Below, in pieces: positions 4,905-19,961 of a stretch of 64,000 bases of DNA. The position numbers and the translations under genes are program-made. A model generated the notes under the pieces. The model was not told the origin of the DNA. It made no database searches and saw nothing but the letters and a program-made list of their open reading frames with translations. The stretch is from Halotia branconii CENA392. GTDB lineage: Bacteria > Cyanobacteriota > Cyanobacteriia > Cyanobacteriales > Nostocaceae. Within the stretch, counting starts at the first letter, position 1; each line of letters begins with the position of its first letter. Location: contig NZ_CP124543.1 in NCBI RefSeq assembly GCF_029953635.1, positions 535,455-599,454 of the forward strand, read 5' to 3'.

Positions 4905-7595
4905 TTAAATAACCCACAATTCTGTACCATTAGTCCCGTTGTTGGCAGTGAAGAACAGTCGCGTACCAACGACAGTCAGCTTCGCAGGATTAGCATTATT
5001 TGTAGAGTTGATATTGCTCATCTTGCGCGTACCTAAAGCTGTGCCGTCACTGCTCCACACCTCCCTATTGTTGCTAGCATCAGATGCTGCAAAGTATAAA
5101 GTGCCATTAAAATCAACGAGACTAGTAGGAATACTGTTATTTGGTTCGCCACCCACCCAAATATCTTTTACCAGTTCGGCATTGGTGCTGTTGCTTTTCC
5201 ATAGTTCCAAGCCACTGTCAGAGTTATAACCAGTAAAGTAAAGAGTAGTGCCAACACCTGCAAGATTGAATGCACCGATACCAGAAATATCACTGTTTAT
5301 TTGTGTAGTGCCTGTACTAGTACCGTCACTCTTCCACAGTTCTTGCCGAAAGTCACCATTGCTATCTGTAACAAAATACAGCGTATTCTCAACGGCGGTG
5401 AGAAATGCCGGTGCAAATCCATTTTTCCCAGGTGTAATATCTTTAACTAAACTAGCTGCTCCAGCTTCGTATTTCCAAACCTCAACCCCGCTTGTACCAT
5501 CATTAGCTGTGAAGTACAGCGTACTACCAATAGCAGTAAGATTACCAGGGGATGAGCCAAGTCCTCCCGACCTGATATCAATAACTTGAGTGCCATTGGT
5601 GCTACCATTGCTTACCCAAAGCTCTTGACCAAATTCGGGGTTCTGGGCTGTAAAATACAGCTGACCGTTAACATTGGTGAGATTCGTCGGATCAGAACTG
5701 TTAGCACCAGAGTAAATGTCTTTAACTAAAGCAACTGTTGTACCATTGTATGACCACAATTCAGCACCATTCGTGCCATCTTTAGCAATAAAGTAAAGCC
5801 TATTACCGACAACAGTCAGATGATCTGGGCTAGAACTAGCAGCACCAGGATTAATATTACTGAGCATCTGTGATGTAGTGCCGTCGTACACCCAAAGTTC
5901 TCTACCGTTGCTGCCATCGTTAGCAGTGAAGTAAAGCTTATTATTGAAGACAGTCAAATTACTGGGATTAAAACCACCAGGATTAATAGTAGTGATGCGG
6001 GTGTTAGTACTACCATTACTCTTCCACAGTTGCACATCATTACTACCATCATTGGCAGTAAAGTACAAATCGCTACCCCATGCTGTCAAATTATCAGGGT
6101 CAGAACTAGCTGTCCCTGGATACACTTCGAGCATTTGAGTTCTGGGATTTTGAGAAACATTTAGGGTGTAGAAACTGTTGGCTAAACCAGAGGTGTAAAC
6201 ACGAATGTAGTAAGTGCCTGTATTCAAATTGGTATTGATAGTTTCATCTGAGGTTCCTCCCATAGCAGATGACTGAATCACAGTACCACTGCTGTTAAGT
6301 AGTTGAACATCTGCATTGTCAATTAAATTTTTAAGAGTGAGACGAAACTCACTATTGATATTGAGACTAAAACGGTAGTAATCATTAGTATCAATATTGC
6401 CAACAAAATCGTTGAAACTTTGGGAACCAGATAATGTACCGATATCTCTGGCTGTGGCTCTAGTATTAGGAGCTTGGTCTGTCCCTATTGCCATAGCGGA
6501 GGCAGAGAGAGTGTAATTAGTAGCTACACCCGTCTCAGGAGTTACCAAAATGTAATATGTGCCGGAGTTTAAGCTGCGTCTAATCGAGTCTACAGCCGTT
6601 CCCGACAGATTAGAAGATTGAATACCATTTCCTGAGCTATCAAGTAGTTGTAGATTTGCATTTGCTGTTGCTGGGGTTAAAGTAAAATCAACTAAAGCAG
6701 CAGTAGCTAAATCAAAGCGGTAATAGTCTTTGTCATCACCAGAATTGACAAAGTCTGAGAAGCTTGTAGCAGTGGTATTTAAAGGGTTAATATTGCGAGC
6801 CGCTGTCAACGTATTCCCAGCATAATCGTCTGGGTCTGGGGTCAAAGAAAGCTGCAAGTTATAGTTTGTAAAATTACCTGCACCACCAAGATATACCTGA
6901 ATATAATATGTGCCAGCTGCCAGATCACGAACAATAGACTCTGATGCAGTGCCGACTTGATTTGAAGTTTGAAGAATATTTCCAAAACTGTTGCGTAGCT
7001 GCAAATCAGCATTGGCTCCTAGCCCATTTAAAGTGATGCCAATATTGCCGTTATTTGCTAGGGTAAATTTGTAGTAGTCACTGCTATCTTTAATTGCACC
7101 TGTAGCACCTGCGTTGCCTACAAAATCAGTGGTACTGTAGCTAGTGTTGATACTATTAAAAGTACCAATATCAAATGCAGTTGATATCAAATTATCAGAA
7201 CGTCCGCTTTCTTGAACGACTTCGGCTGATAAGCTAAGATCATAAAAAGTGTTACTGCCACCACTACCCAAATAAACCTGGGCGTAGTAAGTACCAACAG
7301 CTAAGTTAACTCGGAGTGATTCCGCTGTAGTACCAGATTGAGAAGAAGTATAAATAGAGTTGCCAGTACTGTTTAGCAGTTTTAAGTCTGCATTGCTGCT
7401 AAGGTTATCCAAACCTAAATTAACAATGCTAGAACTGCTAAGGGTAAATTTATAAGTATCGGAGAGGTCTGAACCGCCAATAGAATCTCTAAATATGTTA
7501 GTAGTGCTGGTTAGAGAACCGCCAATATAAGCTGCTGTATCTAAAGCTGTGGCTGTACTACTTCCTGGGTCGGTAAATCCTGAATAAGTTGCCAT
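4905..7595 (-). CDS. Large extracellular-type protein with four N-terminal PPC (pre-peptidase C-terminal) domains and about eight C-terminal ELWxxDGT repeats.
   Basis: There are four roughly 120-aa repeats, each with a DYYKFTL / DYYRFDL motif and GTYYIQVY / GTYYILV / GTYYIRVY, which is the PPC signature. The C-terminal half has repeated LYFTANDGSNGRELWVYDGT-type units (ELWxxDGT repeat). No N-terminal signal peptide is present. Confidence 0.6.
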   Translation of the reverse strand: MATYSGFTDPGSSTATALDTAAYIGGSLTSTTNIFRDSIGGSDLSDTYKFTLSSSSIVNLGLDNLSSNADLKLLNSTGNSIYTSSQSGTTAESLRVNLAVGTYYAQVYLGSGGSNTFYDLSLSAEVVQESGRSDNLISTAFDIGTFNSINTSYSTTDFVGNAGATGAIKDSSDYYKFTLANNGNIGITLNGLGANADLQLRNSFGNILQTSNQVGTASESIVRDLAAGTYYIQVYLGGAGNFTNYNLQLSLTPDPDDYAGNTLTAARNINPLNTTATSFSDFVNSGDDKDYYRFDLATAALVDFTLTPATANANLQLLDSSGNGIQSSNLSGTAVDSIRRSLNSGTYYILVTPETGVATNYTLSASAMAIGTDQAPNTRATARDIGTLSGSQSFNDFVGNIDTNDYYRFSLNINSEFRLTLKNLIDNADVQLLNSSGTVIQSSAMGGTSDETINTNLNTGTYYIRVYTSGLANSFYTLNVSQNPRTQMLEVYPGTASSDPDNLTAWGSDLYFTANDGSNDVQLWKSNGSTNTRITTINPGGFNPSNLTVFNNKLYFTANDGSNGRELWVYDGTTSQMLSNINPGAASSSPDHLTVVGNRLYFIAKDGTNGAELWSYNGTTVALVKDIYSGANSSDPTNLTNVNGQLYFTAQNPEFGQELWVSNGSTNGTQVIDIRSGGLGSSPGNLTAIGSTLYFTANDGTSGVEVWKYEAGAASLVKDITPGKNGFAPAFLTAVENTLYFVTDSNGDFRQELWKSDGTSTGTTQINSDISGIGAFNLAGVGTTLYFTGYNSDSGLELWKSNSTNAELVKDIWVGGEPNNSIPTSLVDFNGTLYFAASDASNNREVWSSDGTALGTRKMSNINSTNNANPAKLTVVGTRLFFTANNGTNGTELWVI

Positions 7596-8337: not shown

Positions 8338-9759
8338 ATGTTCCAGGCTACTCGTCGCCGTCTGGCTATTTGGTACACTGCTGTCACCGCTGTATTACTC
8401 CTCCTATTCGCTAGTGGAGTGTATTTATATGTCCGCAGTACATTAGTGGAGCGAGTTGACGATACCCTCAATCATGTAGTGGAAATTGTCGAGCGTTCTT
8501 TGGTAATTGAACCAGTTGACGATGAACCTGAGCAGTTTCGCATTAATGTAGAAGCCAGTTTTCGAGATAATGCTGACACCGTAGAAGATGATCACATTGA
8601 TTTAGAATGGTTCAGTCCTACTGGTAAGTTGATTTGGTCAACTTTATCGGAACCTCTAAATATTCCTATTCATGGCGATCGCACTGGTGAAACAGTTCGT
8701 GTAGTAAAGTCAGATAGGGAGATAGCAAAATGGGGAGATTCAGCACTTTTATTGCGACAAGTAACCCAGCGTGTACAAGTCGGACGGCAGGTTTTGGGAT
8801 ATCTGCGTGTAAGTCATCCTTGGTTTGAAGTTACTAAACCTAGTCGCCAGTTAATGATTGATTTGGCATTAGGTACTTGGTTAATGGTAATTTCTGTAGC
8901 TGCAAGTGGCTGGTTTCTTTCGGGTAAAGCGATGGAACCTGTAGGCGAATCTTACCAACGCCTGAAACAATTTACCGCTGACGCTTCTCACGAACTTAGA
9001 AGTCCTATTGCTTTGATTCAAACTAATGTACAAGTTGCTTTGGCTGATTTGGAGTCAGCACAAGCAGAAGCGACTACTTCCATAAACTATCGCCAACAGT
9101 TAAAGTTAGTAGAACGACTAACTCAGCGTTTGGGTAAGTTAGTCAATGATTTACTATTTTTAGCACGACAAGATAGTGGTATTAGCAAAGATAGTTTTTC
9201 ACCTTGTCCTCTAGATGCCTTGTTGATGGAGGTGGTGGAGGAACAACAATTGTTAGCTAGTGAAAAAAAAATCATTCTCACTTTAGACTTAGTTGATCCT
9301 TCCACTTCTACAACTGATCCTAAATTGTTAGAAAATTGGTTCACACTTATAGGCAAATGGGATCAATTAGTGCGGTTATTCACAAATTTAATTGGTAACG
9401 CCTTGCAATATACGCCAGCAGGTGGAAGAGTGAATGTAGAATTGATGCGTATAGAGGCCAGCAATCGCGTTTCTAGAATCCGTTACACCACCGACCAGTT
9501 GCAAATTAAAGTTACTGATACAGGAATTGGGATTCCAGTAGAAGCAATTCCACGCTTATTTGACCGCTTTTATCGAGTAGACCCAGCACGTACCCATAAA
9601 ACGAGAAATACAGCTACAGACAGTACTACAGGCTCAGGTTTAGGATTAGCGATCGCTCAAGCTATTGTCGAACATCACCAAGGTCAAATTCAAGTAGAAA
9701 GCAATATCGGCAAAGGCACTACTTTTATTGTCAATTTACCAATAACCCTAGAGTATTAA
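8338..9759 (+). CDS. Two-component sensor histidine kinase with two TM segments and a periplasmic sensor domain.
   Basis: The H-box is ADASHELRSPIALI. The N box is FTNLIGNALQYTP. The G2 box is GSGLGLAIAQAIVEHHQGQIQVES. Two hydrophobic segments flank a roughly 130-aa extracytoplasmic region. No adjacent response regulator is present. Confidence 0.85.
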   Translation: MFQATRRRLAIWYTAVTAVLLLLFASGVYLYVRSTLVERVDDTLNHVVEIVERSLVIEPVDDEPEQFRINVEASFRDNADTVEDDHIDLEWFSPTGKLIWSTLSEPLNIPIHGDRTGETVRVVKSDREIAKWGDSALLLRQVTQRVQVGRQVLGYLRVSHPWFEVTKPSRQLMIDLALGTWLMVISVAASGWFLSGKAMEPVGESYQRLKQFTADASHELRSPIALIQTNVQVALADLESAQAEATTSINYRQQLKLVERLTQRLGKLVNDLLFLARQDSGISKDSFSPCPLDALLMEVVEEQQLLASEKKIILTLDLVDPSTSTTDPKLLENWFTLIGKWDQLVRLFTNLIGNALQYTPAGGRVNVELMRIEASNRVSRIRYTTDQLQIKVTDTGIGIPVEAIPRLFDRFYRVDPARTHKTRNTATDSTTGSGLGLAIAQAIVEHHQGQIQVESNIGKGTTFIVNLPITLEY

Positions 9760-10975: not shown

Positions 10976-11341
10976 TTTCCCATTAACCCAGCAAATTCAT
11001 CTTGACAGACCACTATATACATCAGACGCGTAGGCGGTCTTTCTTATTTTCTGGAAAGGCTGCCTACATGGATTTTAAACTCTTCCTTCTCTGATAATTA
11101 ATTTATTTTCTTCATGCTAAAGAATGAAATAATTATTTTAATTGATATTATTTTCAAGTCTATAGTTAGATAAAATCAAAATCTATAATTGTTATAATTC
11201 AATTAATTAATATTGTTAAGTATTCTTTTAAAAAAATTAAACTATACCGTTAAGTTTTAAATACTCTGATTTAATTTTAATTAATTGAAATAACTACTAA
11301 ATTCTTAATAAAAAAGCCGAGATATTTCTAGGAGCTAACTA

Positions 11342-12175
11342 ATGAATAATATTTTCTCAAATTTTCGCAAGTATGCCGGGTTATTCGGAGCTATTTGTGG
11401 AGGATTATTAATTAGTGTGCCAGTAATTCCAAAAGCAGCATTGGCACAACAGACTACTTCTAAAGTTAATCCTTGTCCAAGCATTTACTACGAAGAACCA
11501 CATAACAATCAAATTTTAACGCCACGCGGATGTCCTCCTAATGCACTAACTCGAAAGCTAGCTGCTCAAGGAACTCTTCCTATGACTCCCGCACCTGCAC
11601 CAACATCTTCATCACCATATCAAGGAGGAATGAGTGTAGGCGGTGAAGCTCCCCAATCAAGCACTCCTGGGATTAACCCTTGTCCTCGTATTTACTATGA
11701 AGAACCATTCAACAGTAGGAATGTAGTACCTCAAGGATGTCCACCTAATGCTCTTACCCAACAGATGCAACAACAAGGATTTACTCCTGGTGTAGTTGTT
11801 CCCGTGCGTCCAGCGGTTTCTGTACCTCAACCACCACTACCAAGTCAACGACAAACCGCCAGTACTCAGGTTGCATTGGCAGATGGAAAGGTGAGTATTA
11901 GATTAGTGAATGATACTGGGGCTGATGTAACTTACCAAGTAATTGGTGATACGCAATCTCGAATCTTAGAGGGTAAGTCAAATGTGATGTTGCAAGGTTT
12001 AAATGCACCAACAACATTGACACTCTACCGTAAAGATAGAGGATTGCTTCAGGTAATTCCCCAAGCTACTTCAACACCGGGAATGTTAGAAGTTAAATTG
12101 GATGAAACAACCGACCAAAATATGAATCAAGGTAGTGTCAGGGTTCAAGAAGACGGTACAGTATTCGTTAATTAG
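11342..12175 (+). CDS. Secreted hypothetical protein with an internally duplicated Cys motif.
   Basis: It has a signal peptide (LLISVPVIPKAALAQQ). There are two copies of NPCP(S/R)IYYEEP..N....P.GCPPNALT separated by a Pro/Ser-rich linker, followed by a roughly 110-aa C-terminal domain. It is preceded by 250 bp of more than 80% AT DNA. Confidence 0.55.
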   Translation: MNNIFSNFRKYAGLFGAICGGLLISVPVIPKAALAQQTTSKVNPCPSIYYEEPHNNQILTPRGCPPNALTRKLAAQGTLPMTPAPAPTSSSPYQGGMSVGGEAPQSSTPGINPCPRIYYEEPFNSRNVVPQGCPPNALTQQMQQQGFTPGVVVPVRPAVSVPQPPLPSQRQTASTQVALADGKVSIRLVNDTGADVTYQVIGDTQSRILEGKSNVMLQGLNAPTTLTLYRKDRGLLQVIPQATSTPGMLEVKLDETTDQNMNQGSVRVQEDGTVFVN

Positions 12176-12558: not shown

Positions 12559-13662
12559 CTACTTGACACGCCGCTTCAGCATTTGAGTTAGTCTATCCAC
12601 CAATAGCACTTCTTTTTTGCTATCTTCTAATGTGCGTGACAATACAATCGCTCTTTCATAAAAATTACGGGCAGTTGGGTAATTACCTAGCTGCTCGTAA
12701 ATTTGAGCGTAGGACTCAAAAGATTTCAACTCCTCACGCAGATTTTGTAATTCTTGAGCAAGGATGAGACGCTGTTCTAATAAATCAAAAGTACGTTCAT
12801 AACGACCTACAGCACTATGAGCTATGACTAAACCATCAATTGCTCGTAATTGGTTAGTGCGATCGCGGTTTATTTTAGCAATCCGCATTGCTGCACCATA
12901 ACTACCAATTGTATCTGAATAGTTCCCTGCTGCGAGATAAGCATCACCTAAATTATTTAAGGTATTCGCTTCACCGATGGTATCACCAGTTTGACGGCGG
13001 AAAGTTAAAGCCGTTTCATAAAGCTTAATCGCTTTGTTGTAATCTCCTAGCCTCACTGTTACTAATCCCAAATTACTCAAAGACAGTCCTTCACCTGTAA
13101 TATTTTTGACATTGTGAGCAATTGTTAGTGCTTCTTGGACTGTTTTACCAGCGGCGACAGGTTCTCCTTGTTGTAGTAGTAAAGTAGCAATGTTGTTGAG
13201 GGCAAAAATCTGAGATTGAAAATCTTTAGTATCACGAGCAATACCTAACTGTCGGCGTAATGCATTTTCTCCTTCTTTAAAACGACTCAGTTGGATATAA
13301 GCTCTTGCCAGTAAATTATAGGTTAGTCCTTGGGCTTTAATATCGCCAATTGAGTGGTAAATATCAAGCGCTTGCAAAGAAGAGTCAATTGTTTTATCGG
13401 CATACCCAGAGGCATACTGTTGTTCACCAATTCGTAACAAGCTATCTGCCTTATCTCTAGATTGTCGCCAACTAGAATTACTTAAAGGTTGGTGGAGTTG
13501 TTGGGTGATATCAGCAGCAGATGCTGCTAGGGGATTGAGCAAAGAAGTAAAAAGTAAAAAATAAAAAGTCAGCCGTGCAGCGAGTCCATCACTACGGCGA
13601 GGATTTACTAAGTATTCTGTACGAAGGATGAGAGCTAATGACAATAAATGCCGTTGTTTCAT
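12559..13662 (-). CDS. Secreted TPR-repeat protein.
   Basis: It has an N-terminal hydrophobic signal and multiple 34-aa TPR-like units (A..Y..LG.AY...G.Y..A). It is encoded directly downstream of a sigma-like gene on the same strand. Confidence 0.7.
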   Translation of the reverse strand: MKQRHLLSLALILRTEYLVNPRRSDGLAARLTFYFLLFTSLLNPLAASAADITQQLHQPLSNSSWRQSRDKADSLLRIGEQQYASGYADKTIDSSLQALDIYHSIGDIKAQGLTYNLLARAYIQLSRFKEGENALRRQLGIARDTKDFQSQIFALNNIATLLLQQGEPVAAGKTVQEALTIAHNVKNITGEGLSLSNLGLVTVRLGDYNKAIKLYETALTFRRQTGDTIGEANTLNNLGDAYLAAGNYSDTIGSYGAAMRIAKINRDRTNQLRAIDGLVIAHSAVGRYERTFDLLEQRLILAQELQNLREELKSFESYAQIYEQLGNYPTARNFYERAIVLSRTLEDSKKEVLLVDRLTQMLKRRVK

Positions 13663-13761
13663 AAAAATTAACCCGTGAAATTTCGGCTTTAATTAGAAGG
13701 TTTAAGAAGAAGTTTTATTTTTTCGTAATTATCGCTACATTTATACGTGTATATACTTGAA

Positions 13762-14391
13762 CTAAGATTGGACTAAATCTTCGTCCAAGTAGATGGTGCG
13801 GATATCTGTAGGTAATTTGTCCTCTAGCATACGATAGCCTTCTTGAAGAAAATTGGCTACTTCGGGAGGCGATATTTTTTCTCCTTCAGCTTGGAGATAG
13901 GCAGCGATTCTAGTCTCGCTCCAATGAAAAGTCTGAGCCATTAAGACCATCAATCGCAAAATTGGTGGTAATTGGTCTAATGCCTTTTCGACGTAGCACC
14001 ATAATGGCGGCGAAGTTGCTTGTAGAGAATAATGAATTGCTTCTGTGGGAGGTACTTGAAGCTCATTGATACAGAAAGCTGTAATGTTAATTAGCCAATT
14101 TTGTAGAGTTAAAGCTTCCTGTCCTGATTGGGGTTCAGTTAAATTGAGTCCACCGAGTTCGTAATAGATATGCCGCCAAGTCAGGGTAAACAGATAATCG
14201 GCTTGCACAGGCGATCGCGCTGAATGCTGAATTAAGGTGTAGACTATAGGGCTGTAGCGGCAAAAAATCACCGTAAAGTACCTCCCAGCATCTGGATTGC
14301 TTTGAAACAAATCCAGCAGTTCTTGGTCACTGTGATGGAACAGCGACTTAACTAGTGGGTGATTAGCTTCCGGAAAATGAGGAATTTGCAT
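13762..14391 (-). CDS. Divergent sigma-70 family (ECF-like) protein.
   Basis: Residues DAGRYFTVIFCRYSPIVYTLIQHSARSPVQADYLFTLTWRHIYYEL align to ECF region 2 (D..AF..L..RY...L.....R......DAEDL.QETFLRAWRAL). However, the acidic DAEDL patch is replaced. The C-terminal LPPILRLMVLMAQTFHWSETRIAAYLQAEGEKISPPEVANFLQEGYRMLEDKL aligns to region 4 (the HTH). Confidence 0.45.
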   Translation of the reverse strand: MQIPHFPEANHPLVKSLFHHSDQELLDLFQSNPDAGRYFTVIFCRYSPIVYTLIQHSARSPVQADYLFTLTWRHIYYELGGLNLTEPQSGQEALTLQNWLINITAFCINELQVPPTEAIHYSLQATSPPLWCYVEKALDQLPPILRLMVLMAQTFHWSETRIAAYLQAEGEKISPPEVANFLQEGYRMLEDKLPTDIRTIYLDEDLVQS

Positions 14392-14584
14392 AAAACCATT
14401 CGGTTGATAGTGGTTAAAATAATATTGGAAATGGTAGTCTTGTAGCTCACCCAGTTTATATTGGGTGTGCTGATGATCATTGCTAAGATTCAGACTACTT
14501 TAGTATTGATAAACTAGAAACAAAGACTTAATTTTTAGTCTTTATCGACAATAATAAAAGCGGCTCCTTTATACAATCTTTAAT

Positions 14585-15187
14585 TTGTTCATGGTTATAG
14601 CAGTCAGTGCAATGAATATTCTGCTCGCTCCCTTGACTTTAGGTTCTTTTTTGCCTTCTCTGCCCTTGGATAGTCTATTTTCTACTCAAGGCATTATGGT
14701 GATGCTGCTAGCAGCTTATGCAGGTGCTATGTGGATGTTTCTCACCAGCGCCCCCAAAGTACACACAGTTATGGTGTCTGATTTAGAGATTGCACGACAG
14801 TTGTATGAAGGGCTGCTAGACTTGCCAGCAGCTGAAGTGCCTCTGCACTACTACTACAACTACGAACAAACTATGGGCGCAACCGGGATCGATCCATTGT
14901 ATATATCCACTAGTCCTAGTTTGTCTGGCAGGATGATGAATAATGCCAATGAAGGATTGTGGTATCAAATGAAAAAAAATACTCAGCTACATGTCATTAC
15001 TGGAGCGAGTTTAGGCAGCAAAAATCAGCAACGTCACGTTTGTTTTGACCGCGACTGCCTAGACATGATTTTAATGCGAGTAGAAATGCGCGGTTTAAAA
15101 TTTAAGATTCGCAACCAGAAGCCCCTAAATTTTCTAGTTAAAGATTACGAAGGGCGCATTATTGAAGTAGCTGAAGTAGCGAATTAG
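14585..15187 (+). CDS. VOC (glyoxalase/bleomycin-resistance/dioxygenase) family protein with an N-terminal membrane anchor.
   Basis: HTVMVSDLEIARQLYEGLL matches the VOC beta-alpha-beta-beta-beta N-terminal motif (H..L.V.DLE.S..FY...LGF). There are two hydrophobic segments at the N-terminus. Confidence 0.5.
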   Translation: MFMVIAVSAMNILLAPLTLGSFLPSLPLDSLFSTQGIMVMLLAAYAGAMWMFLTSAPKVHTVMVSDLEIARQLYEGLLDLPAAEVPLHYYYNYEQTMGATGIDPLYISTSPSLSGRMMNNANEGLWYQMKKNTQLHVITGASLGSKNQQRHVCFDRDCLDMILMRVEMRGLKFKIRNQKPLNFLVKDYEGRIIEVAEVAN

Positions 15188-15322
15188 TTATAACAGGGAA
15201 CAAGGAATAGGCTTGAAAGTCTCTTGGTATCAGGGTTTTATGATCAGCTTATGTCCTAAACTATTTGGCAACAACTATATTGGTCATTTGTATAAATATA
15301 GATCCAAGTCAATGCTCAGTCA

Positions 15323-15354
15323 GATTCCCGACTTTTTCAAAAAAGTCGGGAATC
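15323..15354. terminator. Bidirectional hairpin between the convergent VOC gene and lysS.
   Basis: A perfect 15-bp inverted repeat, GATTCCCGACTTTTT / AAAAAGTCGGGAATC, with a 2-nt loop. It is followed on the plus strand by a T-rich stretch. Confidence 0.5.
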
Positions 15355-15385
15355 TTGTACTTCACGATCTTTTCTACTTATTTCA

Positions 15386-17071
15386 TCAACTCAGTTGTTC
15401 AAATTTAAATTTACCTTTTATAAATTTGTTAAAGTATTGACCTGTAGATGATGCATTGTCTAAGTCTTCTTTGATATTAGGAGGTACTTTGAAATACTCA
15501 TAAACACTGCCACTATCAAATTCAATAGTTAGTATTTGAGTTTTGGCAACATAGCTAAATTGCTTAATAAAGCTACCTTCAGGTTTGAGCAGAGGAAAGG
15601 CGATCGCATCGCGAATACTGGCACAATCAGTTAATAACATTACTAACCTGTCAATCCCAATTCCTAAACCACCTGTGGGTGGCATTCCATATTCAAGAGC
15701 TGTCAAAAAGTCCTCATCTACACCTTGGGCTTCTAAATCACCAGCTGCTTTTCTTTGCGCTTGTGCTTCTAAACGTTCTCTTTGGTCAATGGGGTCTGTT
15801 AATTCTGAGAAGCTATTAGCAGTTTCCCGCCCAACGATAAATAACTCAAATCTTTCTACCAAGCCAGCTTGAGAACGGTGTGGTTTTGCTAAAGGCGAAA
15901 TTTCCACCGGATAATCAATTACAAAGGTAGGCTGAATTAAGTTTGTTTCTACCTTCTCTTCAAAAGCTAAATTTAGTAGTTTACCAATAGATTGGCATTC
16001 CTCTACACCAGGAATAGCAGCATTTTTACTAGCTGTTTTTGCTTCTTCCAAGGTGGGGAACGAATTGAAATCTAAGCCAGTAAATTCTTTAACTACATCG
16101 TGCATTGTTACCCGTCGCCAAGGCAAAGTTAAATCTATAGATTCTCCTTGGTAGGTAATTTGCAAGGTTTCAAGCACCTCTTGGGCGACAGTGGTAATAA
16201 TCCCTTCCGTCAGCGCCATCATGTCGTTATAGTCGGCGTAGGCTTGGTAAACTTCTATGGAAGTAAATTCAGGGTTATGTCGCGTCGAAATTCCCTCATT
16301 GCGGAAAATTCGCCCTAATTCAAACACCTTTTCAAAACCACCCACAATCAACCGCTTGAGATGGAGTTCTGTAGCAATTCGCAGATACAAGTCCATTTCT
16401 AAAGTGTTGTGGTGAGTGACGAAAGGACGTGCATCTGCCCCCCCAGCTTCACTTTGCAGAACAGGCGTTTCAATTTCTAGAAAATCTCGTTGTTCTAAAT
16501 AGCGACGAATACCCGCAGTAATTTGGGCGCGGTGGCGGAAAGTTTGCCGCACTTCTGGGTTAACAATCAAGTCAACATAACGCTGACGATAGCGTTTGGC
16601 AACATCAGTTAACCCATGCCACTTATCGGGTAAAGGTAAGAGGGATTTGGTAAGGATGGTATATTGTTTAACATAAACAGATAACTCGCCCTTTTCAGTC
16701 CGTTTAATAGTGCCTTTGACTCCTAGAATGTCACCTGCATCTGTGAGTTGTTTCAAGTGATTAAAGGCATCAGCATCAATATCTGCCATGCTTTCTTGGA
16801 TGCGATTTTTATCCAGATAAAGCTGAATTGTGCCGGTTTCATCTTGCAATGTGAAGAAAGCCAACTTACCGAAAACGCGACGTGCCATAATGCGTCCAGC
16901 AATGGCAACTTCTAAATCAACTTCTTCACCGTTGGGCAAATCGGCAAATTTTTCTTGCAATTGCGCTGCGTGATGGGTTGATTGCCAACGATAGGCATAG
17001 GGATTAGTTCCTAGCTGCTTTAGTTGATCTACTTTTTCTAATCTGGCGGCACGAATATCTTCTTCCGACAT
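15386..17071 (-). CDS. lysS: Lysyl-tRNA synthetase, class II, with a C-terminal KTSC domain.
   Basis: It has an OB-fold anticodon-binding N-terminus ([27 protein letters not shown]) and class II motifs. The C-terminal roughly 70-aa KTSC-type extension ([33 protein letters not shown]) is typical of cyanobacterial LysS. Confidence 0.95.
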
Positions 17072-17343
17072 GGTAACGAACTCTCAAAGGGCAAGATTAA
17101 TTATAGATGCTGGAAAAGTAGTCAACACTAATCACGGATTGATAAGGATTGCAAGATGTGACTTTACCCATAACTTTGCCGCCAATAACTCTATAACCCT
17201 CATTCTTGCGTCAGCTAATTTTGGATGAAATTGACCGTTTGGAACCGTAACTTTGCCGCTAGTCCAAATTGGATGGTTATGTTGTCTATATTGCTTTGTC
17301 CAGTATTTGTCCTATCCTTCACGAACTAAAGTTTATAGTCTGT

Positions 17344-17575
17344 TTAAAACTTTGGTTCTTTTTGCTGCTGGCGTTTTTCGATTTCGTCGTAGATGGAAAG
17401 CAGGCGATCGCACTTCTCTACAATCCGTTTTTGTTCAGTAGTTGGTGGTAATGGAAAAATTGCTCTACGTCCATCTTCTGTACCCAACCTTGGTAAATTT
17501 ATACCGTCTTCATTGCGTATCTGGATACCTAGTAATGTTGCCAAGGCATTATATCCGTAAGGATGGGAATATCAG
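17344..17575 (-). pseudogene. 3' remnant of a type I restriction-modification specificity subunit (hsdS).
   Basis: ..AIFPLPPTTEQKRIVEKCDRLLSIYDEIE matches the conserved HsdS C-terminal coiled-coil motif (LPPL.EQ..IV..L..L...L). The frame opens directly after an in-frame stop with no upstream target-recognition domain, and the track's start is a TTG. The surrounding 17250-17960 contains only broken ORFs. Confidence 0.5.
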
Positions 17576-17963
17576 CACTTATGAGCTTTCTGTGTTCTTC
17601 GCTGTATTTGTGATGTTACAGTTCTAGAATTTGTTTAATGCTCGATGCTTGGGGTTGAAACAGTCTGCTTTTAAAGGTTTGTCTAATAACAAAGGATTCG
17701 TGGCGATCGCTATCACTATTTTGGTAGGTTCAACTTATCCTGATCAAATTTCCAATTTGGCAGCAACTGATTCATCAAACCTACAAAGTGATCACCGCGA
17801 TAACGTTCTCAAGACCGTTTAAGTCCCGACTTTGAAGTTTTTCAATATTGCACAGAGCTAATAACATACGGTGCAAAGAAACTTTGCTTATGTATTCGCT
17901 AAGGATATGAAGATATAGCACATATCAGGAACTCGCAAATTAACTTGCTTGCGATAGGTAATT

Positions 17964-18131
17964 TTATTGCGGTGGATTTTGTTGCTTCTCCCGCTCCTCA
18001 ACCGCTTTACTCACAATCCGAACCACGAGATTACTGATGGGACGGTCTTCTTCCTGCGCCCATCTTACCAAAGCCTCATGGATATCTTTGGGGAAATATA
18101 TAGAAGTTTGTACGCGATCGCTCTGGCTCAT
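17964..18131 (-). CDS. Ribbon-helix-helix (CopG/Arc/MetJ-like) DNA-binding protein of 55 aa, missing from the ORF track.
   Basis: Manual translation of the minus strand gives MSQSDRVQTSIYFPKDIHEALVRWAQEEDRPISNLVVRIVSKAVEEREKQQNPPQ. It starts with ATG. The beta-strand followed by two helices (SIYFP.D....L..WA.....P.S.LV...V) is the classic RHH antitoxin/repressor fold. A palindrome, GCAATGTTTTATGCTAATGTTAAAAACATTGC, lies 60-105 bp upstream. Confidence 0.55.
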   Translation of the reverse strand: MSQSDRVQTSIYFPKDIHEALVRWAQEEDRPISNLVVRIVSKAVEEREKQQNPPQ

Positions 18132-18743
18132 CAACACTTAAAGGATTTATCGCCAGTTAATCATACCCCAGCATCAGCTACTGAATCTCAACAATGTTTA
18201 GCAATGTTTTATGCTAATGTTAAAAACATTGCCATACTTTTTAAAAACGTGTGACAGATTGGTATACAGTTTTTGTCTTAGAAGTCGATGCCATTAGCGA
18301 CTTGAGCCATGTTAATGACTGGGCTTGCATTGATTGTGGCTAACTCCGCAAATTGGCAAAGTTGCCAGCAGATTTTCTGATACTGCAAGATGATCGAAAT
18401 TTTTATATGGCGATCGCGTCAAGTGGCAGCAGTACTGAAGAACCTTAAGTTTTAACTACACGAGCTAAGAAATTATTGATTTTCAGGAGAAGTTGGCCTT
18501 ATGACTCTCAGTTGGTGGTGGGTTGAAAGCTCAACTTCCTATGTGCATATTGCCGATGGCTGGTGTGGGTTTCAACAACCCTCTCAGCCGATGGTGGGTT
18601 GAAAGATTTGTACAACTATCTTCTCAGCAATCTCACTTTTACAGCCTTCTATCGTAAAATTATTCATTATGGTGGTTTGAAAGAAGCGCTTCAATGGCAT
18701 CTTGCCAGAGATGTGCTGTATTTATAATAATTTAATATACAAA

Positions 18744-18816
18744 TGGAGCTAAGCGGATTCGAACCGCTGACCCCCTCAATGCCATTGAGGTGCTCTACCA
18801 ACTGAGCTATAACCCC
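18744..18816 (-). tRNA. tRNA-Ala (anticodon GGC).
   Basis: The sequence folds into a cloverleaf. The acceptor is GGGGTTA/TAGCTCC with a G3:U70 Ala identity pair. The D-arm is GCTC/GAGC. The anticodon stem is CCTCA/TGAGG with the loop ATGGCAT. The T-arm is AGCGG-TTCGAAT-CCGCT. The discriminator is A and no CCA is encoded. Confidence 0.85.
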
Positions 18817-18890
18817 TTACAATGCGTTATTTATATTGCCTTAGCTGTTAATGCTTTGTCAAGTTTTTGCTCTAAACCCAACATCATTGT

Positions 18891-19187: not shown

Positions 19188-19961
19188 TTAGGACAATAAC
19201 CGTACAGGTAGGTGACGATCGCGTAAGTAATTCTTAATTTCTGCCACACTTAGTTGTCCGTAGTGCAGTAATGATGCTAATAGTGCAGCTTCGGCTTTGC
19301 CTTCTGTAAGTGCTGTGTAAATATGTTCACAATTGCCTGCACCACCGGAGGCAATGACTGGAACTTGTACAGATTCAGCGATCGCTCTTGTCAGCCCTAG
19401 GTCATAGCCAGCTTGAGTACCATCAGCATCCATACTGGTAACTAGCAGTTCTCCTGCTCCTCGTTTTTCTACTTCTTGTGCCCAAAGTAGGGCATCTAAG
19501 CCAGTGTTTTCTCTACCACCTCGCACATACACATCCCAGCCTGGGTTATAGGGGTCAATTCTGCGTCTGGCATCAATAGCAACAACTATGCATTGATTAC
19601 CAAAGCGATCGCTTGCCCGACTAATTAAGTCTGGTTCACGTACTGCCGCAGAATTAATACTAACTTTGTCTGCTCCAGCCCGTAATAAAACTTTAACATT
19701 TTCTAATGATTGAATACCACCACCGACAGTTAATGGAATAAAGACCTGTTCAGCAGTGCGGTAAACTACATCAATAATTGTATTGCGATCTTCATGAGTC
19801 GCTGTAATATCCAGAAATACTAACTCATCTGCACCAGCTTCGTTGTAAACCTTTGCCAATTCAACCGGATCACCCGCATCTTTAAGATCAACAAAGTTAA
19901 CTCCCTTTACAACTCGTCCCGCCTTCACATCTAAGCACGGTAAGATTCTTTTAGACAACAT
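19188..19961 (-). CDS. hisF: Imidazole glycerol phosphate synthase cyclase subunit.
   Basis: [49 protein letters not shown] and the (beta/alpha)8 glycine-rich phosphate-binding motifs are characteristic of HisF. Confidence 0.95.

Follow-up and report, generated by a model that had tools for sequence, protein, structure and literature searches.

Within the 64-kb stretch of Halotia branconii CENA392 DNA analysed here (the window), the region between the upstream flank of lysS and a tRNA-Ala(GGC) gene contains one small intact gene, which encodes a ribbon-helix-helix (RHH) protein, together with fragments of other genes, CRISPR-type repeats and short sequences resembling transposon ends (Table 1). 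An earlier sequence-only reading had interpreted this region as the scar of an eroded restriction-modification (R-M) or toxin-antitoxin island, situated 900 bp from a tRNA gene. The tRNA is indeed present, its distance from the start of the RHH gene being 613 bp.

Table 1. Features between the lysS flank and tRNA-Ala(GGC), in window positions
Feature	Position	Strand	Basis or remark
Putative distal terminus of a second Tn7-like element (TnsA-TnsB-fusion, tRNA-targeting)	17157-17285	+	end alignment
C-terminal piece of HsdS, the specificity subunit of type I R-M systems	17344-17544	-	similarity at ~17362-17505
P-type cation ATPase, two collinear cargo fragments	17518-17550 and 17547-17728	+	blastn against L014/L015
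YgjP-like gene, C-terminal fragment	17701-17808	-	tblastn and blastn
arc_2, intact gene of a 55-aa RHH protein	17964-18131	-	Pfam RHH_5 and identity to the L015 protein
arc_2-cas12k divergent intergenic (promoter) region	18132-18500		nearly whole; 95.9% identity to L015
Candidate Arc_2 operator	18192-18232		CAATGTTT at 18192 (+), 18202 (+) and 18224 (-)
cas12k start codon and deletion junction (ATGA/CTCTCAG)	18501-18504	+	comparison with sister loci
CRISPR repeat, 3' 25 nt, CTCTCAGTTGGTGGTGGGTTGAAAG, joined to the cas12k ATG	18505-18529	+	repeat family
39-nt spacer	18530-18568	+	absent from the L015 array
Complete 37-nt type V-K CRISPR repeat, GTTTCAACAACCCTCTCAGCCGATGGTGGGTTGAAAG	18569-18605	+	Rfam CRISPR-DR15
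Conserved 63-nt linker from array to truncated repeat, no variable spacer	18606-18668	+	
Truncated repeat R* of the homing (delocalized, anchor) crRNA, ATGGTGGTTTGAAAG	18669-18683	+	
17-nt anchor spacer, AAGCGCTTCAATGGCAT	18684-18700	+	pairs with tRNA-Ala protospacer GAGCACCTCAATGGCAT
Left-end remnant	18701-18741		inner part 18701-18723; terminal 18 bp, ATAATAATTTAATATACA, 18724-18741
tRNA-Ala(GGC), homing target	18744-18816	-	ARAGORN; Rfam tRNA, 65.8 bits
PAM GGTA and protospacer	18799-18796 and 18795-18779		within tRNA-Ala(GGC)

The unannotated open reading frame that had been proposed to encode an RHH protein does so: it specifies 55 aa from its ATG (57 aa from an upstream GTG), and residues 5-48 match the Pfam RHH_5 model with 41.3 bits (cutoff 26; E 1.3e-10). 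A PDB sequence search with this protein returned weak matches only, the best with E 0.16 (the RHH proteins HP0222, ORF56 and CdbA). Its 55 homologues in Nostocales are 60-98% identical to it, and 44 of them have E <= 1e-20, which is the homology threshold for Arc_2 in the paper defining that class (Ziemann et al., 2023, PMC9938897). Arc_2 is defined there as an RHH_5 (cl06769) protein of 53-72 aa, encoded upstream of cas12k and divergently from it, and V2 systems are described as having Arc_2 exclusively as regulator (Ziemann et al., 2025, PMC12416283). The window protein agrees with this definition in size and domain, and also in its reverse orientation upstream of cas12k, of which the ATG at 18501, 369 bp from the arc_2 start, is left in the window. 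In L015, a metagenome contig with the same hisF-tRNA-Ala site, the gene of a 100% identical RHH protein diverges from an intact Cas12k gene; the same divergent pair occurs in L037 (Scytonema NIES-4073) and in L097-L099, and in every context sampled cas12k, whole or fragmentary, is the divergent neighbour of the RHH gene. Close homology to a recognised CAST Arc_2 is given by the 92.7% identity to the protein of NIES-4073, the published V2 model strain, which bears a complete V2 CAST with Arc_2 (Ziemann et al., 2025). No toxin ORF was found as a partner of the RHH gene in the window, and in relatives the next gene is either hsdM, ~195 bp downstream, or unrelated cargo. By sequence comparison the 55-aa protein is an Arc_2-type regulator of a V-K_V2 CAST, and not an antitoxin. 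DNA binding and repression by Arc_2 are themselves given as predicted functions in the literature (Ziemann et al., 2023).

The perfect 10-bp inverted repeat noticed earlier upstream of this gene is real, its position being 70-101 bp upstream of the ATG. Its arms, GCAATGTTTT at 18201-18210 and AAAACATTGC at 18223-18232, are the inner pair of CAATGTTT copies in a repeat block: of the six copies of CAATGTTT in the 64-kb window, three are located inside 18192-18231. The block recurs at -70 to -110 in all nine contexts compared, and the hexamer is matched 2-5 times per 160 nt, the background being 0.10; the window copy is without one 10-bp unit that relatives have, the L015 and NIES-4073 versions having four units. 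Its conservation and position point to the CAATGTTT block as a candidate Arc_2 operator, and make it plausible that the RHH protein and the palindrome are a repressor-operator pair. In this case RHH dimers would bind the 10-bp-spaced CAATGTTT repeats cooperatively in the divergent arc_2/cas12k promoter region, and the binding would repress cas12k and probably arc_2 too, in the manner of CvkR, the MerR-type regulator of V1 systems. A scan of the intergenic region for consensus promoters gave nothing convincing. In the passages searched, the two papers (Ziemann et al., 2023, 2025) describe no Arc_2 operator.

As to the repeats, the complete one scores 37.4 bits against Rfam CRISPR-DR15 (gathering score 36; E 2.7e-5) and is 89-92% identical to the repeats of L014/L015. 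The repeat 3' motif GGTGGKTTGAAAG is present in three copies, solely at 18517-18683, against 0.15 expected, and the repeat type is that of V-K systems, i.e., 37 nt with a conserved 3' GGTGGGTTGAAAG. The stretch 18606-18720, which includes the linker, is 93.9% identical to L015. This mini CRISPR array (18505-18700), lying between the RHH gene and the tRNA, does not appear in the sequence-only reading. The delocalized (anchor) homing crRNA of V-K CASTs reportedly goes back to Saito et al. in 2021. Its definition is given by Ziemann et al. (2023), and the window agrees with the overall CAST layout in Fig. 1 of that paper. Like the V-K delocalized crRNA, the window sequence has a 17-nt spacer behind a truncated repeat, just inside the tRNA-proximal end, and matches the tRNA gene beside a GTN PAM; unlike it, the window anchor matches at 14/17 and is accompanied by neither Cas12k nor tracrRNA in cis. 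The mismatches fall at PAM-proximal positions 1, 5 and 7, so that the present copy might not have homed here unaltered; we tentatively attribute them to decay, or to the element having come from a host whose tRNA variant was different. The sister anchors match their own tRNA better, at 17/17 (L015) and 16/17 (L037). From the PAM to the left-end tip at 18741 there are exactly 54 nt, the constant distance in V-K_V2 systems (Ziemann et al., 2025). The tip matches the terminal sequence of L037 at 16 of 18 positions, its canonical terminal TGTACA being mutated to TATACA. By the published mechanism, the anchor crRNA would have guided Cas12k to the anticodon arm of tRNA-Ala(GGC) beside the GGTA PAM, and insertion by TnsB, TnsC and TniQ would then have taken place at a point 54 nt downstream from the PAM and 2 bp beyond the 3' end of the tRNA.

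The arrangement of L015 (RHH, Cas12k, tracrRNA, repeats, anchor, left end) identifies the window locus as a gutted type V-K_V2 CAST. L014/L015 has the same site order as the window (ruvB-hisF-63aa-tRNA-Ala), carries a tracrRNA region, five repeats, the fully matching anchor and a full left end, and its 673-aa ORF is Cas12k (E 2e-139 against ShCas12k); more intact sisters are located at the same tRNA in Scytonema NIES-4073 and in the Tolypothrix-type genomes L097-L099. The window and the sister CAST share collinear blocks of 91-96% identity, which delimit each deletion and bear out the earlier suggestion that a mobile element has eroded at the tRNA. The steps of decay, established by this comparison, are as follows. 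One deletion, by which the cas12k ATG now runs straight into a CRISPR repeat at its middle, took cas12k from codon 2, the tracrRNA and most of the array with its leading repeats (~2.7-2.9 kb are missing); a second took the ~190-bp interior of the left end with all three internal TnsB-type repeats (TGGACAATAATTCTTTAAAACTG); further deletions cut the cargo down to YgjP-like and P-type ATPase fragments, while tniQ, tnsC, tnsB and the right end were lost. In all, at least five deletions removed cas12k, the tracrRNA, the internal TnsB sites and most of the cargo.

The searches of the window are in line with this scheme. Apart from the start codon, tblastn and blastn with Cas12k of L009, L001, L015 and L037 found no cas12k in the window, and neither blastn with the L015 and L037 tracrRNA/leader regions nor Rfam gave a significant tracrRNA match there. 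Across the 64 kb there are no internal TnsB sites and no V-K right end, 18 bp being left of the left-end tip, and a Pfam scan of the seven large ORFs of the window found housekeeping or unrelated proteins only, with no TnsB, TnsC or TniQ among them. Since neither a right end nor a target-site duplication was found, the original extent and the order of the two insertions (for the second, see below) are inferred. What survives is arc_2, most of the operator, the anchor and a mini-array with two repeats, of which one is complete and the other truncated. Having lost its effector, tracrRNA, transposition genes, right end and left-end interior, the relic is unable alone to transpose or to form a functional guide complex. 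Hosts that share ~86% identity in hisF have CAST DNA with 94-96% identity, an illustration of how such elements spread horizontally and then erode.

Two kinds of cargo fragments can be traced to sister loci. The P-type ATPase pieces are 93.9% and 94.5% identical to L014/L015 (blastn) and, measured against the intact sister CAST, are set apart by deletions of ~1.5 kb and ~3.0 kb; the L015 ATPase gene (13216-16179) encodes Cation_ATPase and E1-E2_ATPase domains. The YgjP-like piece matches residues 201-230 of L003 YgjP (tblastn, E 1.7e-5), and 17727-17809 is 77-78% identical to L003-L008 (blastn); in relatives the YgjP-like gene is the last one in the type I R-M cargo operon behind the RHH gene. 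The third piece had been read as the C-terminal remnant of an hsdS gene. Its score against Pfam Methylase_S, 18.1 bits (E 0.0034; ~45 residues, one conserved region), is under the cutoff of 22; however, a search of a 5.8-billion-protein set gave significant HsdS matches, P0057, with a Pfam Methylase_S domain (E 3.5e-8), and P0058, annotated as 'restriction endonuclease subunit S' (E 2.3e-6), which have the motif LPPxxEQKRIVEKCDRLLSIxDxIEKRQQQK in common with the window fragment. The piece is a fragment, a pseudogene remnant and not a gene. Thus, both observations on which the sequence-only reading had staked itself, the conservation of the RHH protein and the significance of the hsdS similarity, hold. 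We considered whether the HsdS piece came from the R-M cargo located behind arc_2 in relatives, and rejected this, because it has just the generic LPPxxEQ motif in common with that hsdS (L003, L037; 29-43% identity over 31-45 aa). It is situated between the V-K-derived DNA and the end of the second Tn7-like element, and belonged as cargo to one of these two relic elements, either being possible.

The putative second element is represented by the segment that adjoins the 85-bp lysS upstream flank. It consists of the terminal sequence TGTGACTTTACCCATAACTTTGCCGCC, followed by transposase-site-like repeats at 17240-17262 and ~17265-17285, and aligns with both ends of the decayed L033 copy and with the tRNA-proximal ends of L030, L094 and L058. 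L030 encodes TnsAB, TnsC and two TniQ proteins (large, TniQ/TnsD-like), and the L030 and L033 elements are located 16-32 bp downstream of the same tRNA-Ala. The sequence RTAASTTTGCCG was found in 5 of 95 loci, namely L012, which is the window itself, and four in which it belongs to an element beside this tRNA. We also considered whether ATAACTTTGCCGC is a dispersed repeat or the hairpin of a terminator; this was rejected, since the motif is found nowhere but beside this tRNA, where it makes up the terminal inverted repeats of an element. The segment is, by these alignments, the putative distal end of a second Tn7-like element, which is of the TnsAB type and targets the same tRNA flank. Cyanobacterial tRNA-targeting Tn7-like transposons with a TnsA-TnsB fusion have been described (Hsieh and Peters, 2023, PMC9881144). 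Like the ends of L030 and L033, the segment has a terminal TGT and repeated transposase-site-like motifs; unlike these elements, it is a single surviving end, with no genes in the window. In none of 80 other species-level genomes (the set is without the species of the window; best hisF identity 93%) was lysS found within 10 kb of this tRNA, nor did their tRNA-downstream DNA match the window. As lysS is never the neighbour of this tRNA in these genomes, rearrangement may also be involved.

Taken as a whole, the reading that 17518-18741 is the remnant of a V-K_V2 CAST, that the RHH protein is its Arc_2-type regulator and that 17157-17285 is the end of a second element has, in our estimate, a probability of about 0.9. 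The locus comprises two transposon end scars, a mini-array and an unannotated 55-aa gene, which accounts for the 1.6-kb "empty" intergenic region, and the relic at tRNA-Ala is an ordinary degraded representative of a known family (Cas12k, type V-K). With the Nostocales V-K_V2 CASTs, of which L037 is a complete example (Ziemann et al., 2025), it shares the tRNA-Ala(GGC) homing site, the 37-nt repeat type, the truncated repeat with 17-nt anchor, the GGTA PAM and its spacing, as well as a closely similar Arc_2, the repeat block upstream of it and the left-end terminal sequence. It differs from L037 in the absence of tracrRNA_V2, internal TnsB-binding repeats, tnsB, tnsC, tniQ and right end, and of cas12k except for its ATG, and from complete V2 CASTs in the reduced array, the three anchor mismatches and the fragmentary cargo. 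As in the Arc_2 class (Ziemann et al., 2023), a small RHH_5 protein is encoded divergently from cas12k, with an intergenic repeat/palindrome block. By analogy with CvkR, which is of the MerR type and represses cas12k and tnsB in Anabaena 7120, its role is presumed to be repression of CAST genes. However, CvkR has a MerR winged helix-turn-helix fold and an experimentally defined binding site, while the function of Arc_2 is predicted, and the window differs from intact systems of both kinds in that the target gene of the regulator, cas12k, is deleted.

Could the relic be under selection as a domesticated control module, in which the intact arc_2 silences incoming or resident V-K_V2 CASTs in trans, or which supplies a homing crRNA? 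arc_2 is the sole intact gene in the relic, and its three nucleotide differences from L015 are all synonymous (0 nonsynonymous), with the adjoining non-coding DNA diverged by 4-6%; however, three substitutions are too few for a test of selection, and a 168-bp gene is a small target that may survive deletional decay by chance. arc_2 is intact also at other loci with a broken cas12k (L001, L003-L009, L096), but these loci were retrieved with the RHH protein as query, which favours intact copies in the sample. Most of the operator and promoter region is kept, and the cas12k promoter region now leads directly into the mini-array and the homing guide; against this, one operator unit is gone, the anchor has its mismatches, and neither Cas12k nor tracrRNA is known from this genome, as far as the 64-kb window was searched. 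We regard such a control function as improbable.

Somewhat less probable still is an eroded R-M or toxin-antitoxin island that a site-specific recombinase had inserted at the tRNA, with the RHH protein as antitoxin or R-M controller acting on its own operator. The HsdS fragment is present, and in most relatives the RHH gene is located ~195 bp upstream of a co-oriented type I hsdM-hsdS-PIN-hsdR operon, a position and orientation in which it could co-regulate that cargo. However, the hsdS fragment of the window differs from the hsdS of that operon, in L001, L015 and L100 the RHH homologue is accompanied by cas12k and not by R-M genes, and no integrase, attachment-site duplication or toxin gene was found here or in any relative. 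The flank has instead a CRISPR array, an anchor guide and a Tn7-type end, and the intact sister loci largely refute the island label: the element is a CRISPR-guided Tn7-like transposon. That the repeats and the tRNA match arose by chance, the RHH protein being an unrelated orphan regulator, has a negligible probability, for although a single full repeat exceeds the Rfam threshold, and narrowly, and the anchor match is imperfect, the motif excess, the exact PAM-to-end spacing and the 91-96% collinear homology to complete CASTs at the same site, spanning repeats, linker, R*, anchor and tip, have already refuted it.

In general, the result is a correction of annotation, an apparent R-M or toxin-antitoxin scar being shown to be a gutted CRISPR-guided transposon, preferred here as the V-K_V2 CAST remnant. 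Together with its relatives it makes up a series of decay at one homing site, from intact (L015, L037, L097) to gutted (the window). Should the relic after all serve as a control module, it would have a transposon-immunity function like that of a prophage-remnant repressor, or would provide guides for Cas12k encoded elsewhere. At least two different families of Tn7-like elements make use of the tRNA-Ala(GGC) 3' flank, where they can leave tandem scars, and the position-fixed, conserved CAATGTTT block is a concrete candidate for the operator of the Arc_2 regulators, which are still uncharacterised.

Judging by its sequence, the locus between lysS and hisF (see table) is a relic of a V-K_V2 CAST (Cas12k CRISPR-associated Tn7-like transposon), a decayed representative of a known family. 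The RHH ORF, the palindrome and the HsdS-like fragment, which the sequence-only reading had pointed out, are all real features according to coordinates, Pfam and protein search. Its suggestion of an eroded mobile element at the tRNA also holds, except that the element is a CAST relic and not the R-M or TA island it had named. GCGATCGC sites, of cyanobacterial style, are numerous in the window.

Features of the locus, with the blocks collinear to the metagenome contig L014/L015
Feature	Window position	Strand	Remarks
lysS	15386-17071	minus	
HsdS-like ORF	17344-17544	minus	Pfam 18.1 bits, under threshold 22
RHH ORF, 55 aa	17964-18131	minus	Pfam RHH_5 41.3 bits, cutoff 26
10-bp inverted repeat GCAATGTTTT/AAAACATTGC	18201-18210 and 18223-18232		70-101 bp upstream of RHH ATG
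3' 25 nt of second repeat	18505-18529	plus	
Complete 37-nt repeat	18569-18605	plus	Rfam CRISPR-DR15 37.4 bits, gathering score 36
Truncated repeat ATGGTGGTTTGAAAG	18669-18683	plus	
tRNA-Ala(GGC)	18744-18816	minus	
hisF	19188-19961	minus	
L014/L015 block	17547-17728 and 17518-17550		Two pieces of P-type ATPase cargo gene
L014/L015 block	17727-18504		Downstream of RHH gene up to cas12k ATG
L014/L015 block	18569-18728		Last repeat, conserved 63-nt linker, truncated repeat, anchor, inner left end
L014/L015 block	18724-18741		Left-end tip

Overlooked at first was a small plus-strand CRISPR array between the RHH gene and the tRNA, containing three copies of the motif GGTGGKTTGAAAG, which has no other mismatch-free copy in the 64 kb (0.15 expected). 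The truncated repeat is followed by 17 nt (AAGCGCTTCAATGGCAT) complementary to the neighbouring tRNA gene in its anticodon arm, with agreement at 14 of 17 positions; GGTA precedes the protospacer, and exactly 54 nt lie between the end of this PAM (18796) and the end tip (18741). The array, truncated repeat, anchor, PAM and divergent regulator follow the V-K CAST layout described in passages of PMC9938897: the tRNA is directed at the transposon left end, a truncated repeat carries a 17-nt anchor spacer matching the tRNA beside a GTN PAM, and the anchor guide is followed by array, tracrRNA and cas12k, from which a small regulator gene diverges. The same passages define the Arc_2 regulator class by its RHH_5 domain, while those of PMC12416283 describe V-K_V2 as a Nostocales-only subgroup with an alternative tracrRNA, exclusively Arc_2 regulators and a constant PAM-to-left-end distance of 54 nt, Scytonema sp. 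NIES-4073 being its in-vivo model.

The assignment to V-K_V2 rests on this spacing and on sister loci. The L014/L015 contig encodes an identical 55-aa RHH protein at the same ruvB-hisF-63aa-tRNA-Ala(GGC) locus, together with a divergent 673-aa Cas12k (E 2e-139 to ShCas12k structures), a tracrRNA region, five repeats, a truncated repeat GGGTGGTTTGAAAG with the anchor GAGCGCTGCAATGGCAT (17/17 to its own tRNA), and a left end of about 240 bp having three TGGACAATAATTCTTTAAAACTG repeats and terminal TGTACA 2 bp from the tRNA. Complete CASTs occupy the same tRNA-Ala(GGC) in Scytonema sp. NIES-4073 (L037; RHH 92.7% identical to that of the window, Cas12k 72% identical to that of L015, anchor GAGCACTTCAATGGCAT matching its tRNA at 16/17) and in Tolypothrix-type genomes (L097-L099). 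Further relatives (L001, L003-L009) reside at tRNA-Ala(CGC) with a corresponding anchor (17/17 in L009) and cas12k at various stages of decay; degenerate cas12k beside such regulators was already noted in passages of PMC9938897. In the Anabaena/Dolichospermum-type loci (L003-L008, about 8990-9610), cas12k is cut to a 110-aa N-terminal stub and a single repeat is left, while arc_2 and a complete hsdM-hsdS-PIN-hsdR cargo operon are kept.

The anchor match was observed to follow the local tRNA allele: 17/17 in L015 (about 6513-6529) and L009 (about 6784-6800), 16/17 in L037 (about 11515-11531) and 14/17 in the window (18684-18700). The L037 anchor matches perfectly the tRNA allele of three other genomes (L027, L035, L049), and that of the window resembles a hybrid of two alleles. 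Since the CAST-derived DNA (17727-18728) is 94-96% identical to L015, as against only 85.6% for hisF and 90% for the tRNA, the comparison indicates horizontal spread or independent homing of close elements into different species.

The extent of the losses was read from the junctions of the L014/L015 blocks (91-96% identity). At ATGA|CTCTCAG the cas12k start codon is joined to repeat nucleotide 13, with about 2.7-2.9 kb (cas12k, tracrRNA and leading repeats) lost; the left end lacks about 190 bp of its interior, including all internal TnsB-type repeats, and its terminal TGTACA has become TATACA. The candidate operator block lost one 10-bp unit, the cargo suffered deletions of about 3.0 kb and 1.5 kb, and nothing is left beyond the cargo pieces, tniQ, tnsC, tnsB and the right end included. 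A search of the 64-kb window for cas12k, tracrRNA, TnsB sites and the right end found no trace of them. The relic is thus a non-functional member, cas12k, tracrRNA, transposase genes and ends having been tested for and found absent. A chimeric 33-aa ORF (MTLSWWWVESS..., 18501-18602, plus strand) begins at the kept cas12k ATG with its Shine-Dalgarno sequence and continues through the repeats; the mini-array would now be transcribed directly from the former cas12k promoter.

The RHH gene diverges from whole or fragmentary cas12k in every sampled context and is followed by hsdM in most, not all. The palindrome belongs to a conserved repeat block that was found in 9/9 contexts, with 2-5 hexamer matches per 160 nt where the background is 0.10. 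In relatives this block, placed at -70 to -110 relative to the start codon, consists of three 10-bp (A/C)ACATT(G/A) units in tandem plus a single CAATGTTT in inverted orientation. RHH dimers such as Arc, MetJ, CopG and omega typically bind short repeats that are arranged in tandem and inverted orientation with helical spacing. By analogy with CvkR, which represses cas12k, Arc_2 would bind this block and repress the divergent promoters. Its function is still termed predicted in the literature, and no Arc_2 operator is described in the searched passages of PMC9938897 and PMC12416283. In L037, L097, L003, L009 and L001 a further small palindrome, TAGCCTTGTAACAAGGTT, is located some 45-65 nt before the RHH start; in most relatives it is flanked by the CAATGTTT block on one side and by a conserved -10-like GGTATGAT motif on the other. 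The window (18165-18190) and L015 have unrelated sequence in its place. The three substitutions separating arc_2 of the window from that of L015 are all synonymous, neighbouring non-coding DNA being 4-6% diverged, a pattern compatible with purifying selection in numbers too small for proof. Retention of the repressor and guide module for a trans-acting role seems very improbable to us.

On the lysS side, 17157-17285 contains TGTGACTTTACCCATAACTTTGCCGCC and two further related sites and aligns with termini of a different Tn7-like family, which other genomes have downstream of the same tRNA-Ala, at a distance of 16-32 bp. One such element (L030, 11251-18434) is apparently intact, with genes for a TnsA-TnsB fusion, TnsC and two TniQ-plus-HTH proteins; another (L033, 11267-14144) is a decayed 2.9-kb copy with both ends, and only the tRNA-proximal end is visible in L094 and L058. 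PMC9881144 describes the corresponding family, tRNA-targeting elements with a TnsAB fusion, and by this alignment nothing of it but the distal terminus, abutting lysS, is left in the window. The HsdS fragment, situated between that terminus and the DNA derived from the V-K element, matches HsdS proteins in a search of 5.8 billion proteins (E 3.5e-8 and 2.3e-6) and shares with them the motif LPPxxEQKRIVEKCDRLLSIxDxIEKRQQQK. Its derivation from the V2 cargo operon was rejected by comparison with the hsdS of that operon. By eye, L033 (12190-12428) contains pieces resembling an HsdR C-terminal fragment and an insertion-sequence-type ORF; if this call holds, type I R-M cargo may travel with the TnsAB-type family. 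A collinear direct similarity between 17281-17314 and 18826-18874 (21/26 and 14/17, 13-nt gap), the first stretch lying just within the end of the second element and the other in the promoter region preceding tRNA-Ala, may be due to chance in AT-rich DNA.

In none of the 80 other cyanobacterial genomes (L016-L095) is lysS within 10 kb of this tRNA-Ala, and their tRNA-downstream DNA has no match in the 64-kb window; therefore the relic coincides with a synteny break, and synteny ends exactly at the transposon scars (15386-17156 compared with L016-L095). The tRNA-Ala(GGC) 3' flank seems to serve several element families as a hotspot. A distinct V-K CAST (Cas12k 42% identical) lies there in L063 (11224 onward), a matching solo end-like stretch (TTGTCGTCGTTAACAG) in L092 (11212-11260), a third repeat type (…TTATGCTTGTC…) in L027 and L036 (about 11240-11340), and transposon-end-like sequence just after the tRNA in L035, L046, L075 and L077. 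The locus is of value chiefly because it offers a candidate operator for Arc_2, forms part of a clean series of decay stages at a single homing site, and shows two families exploiting the flank of tRNA-Ala.
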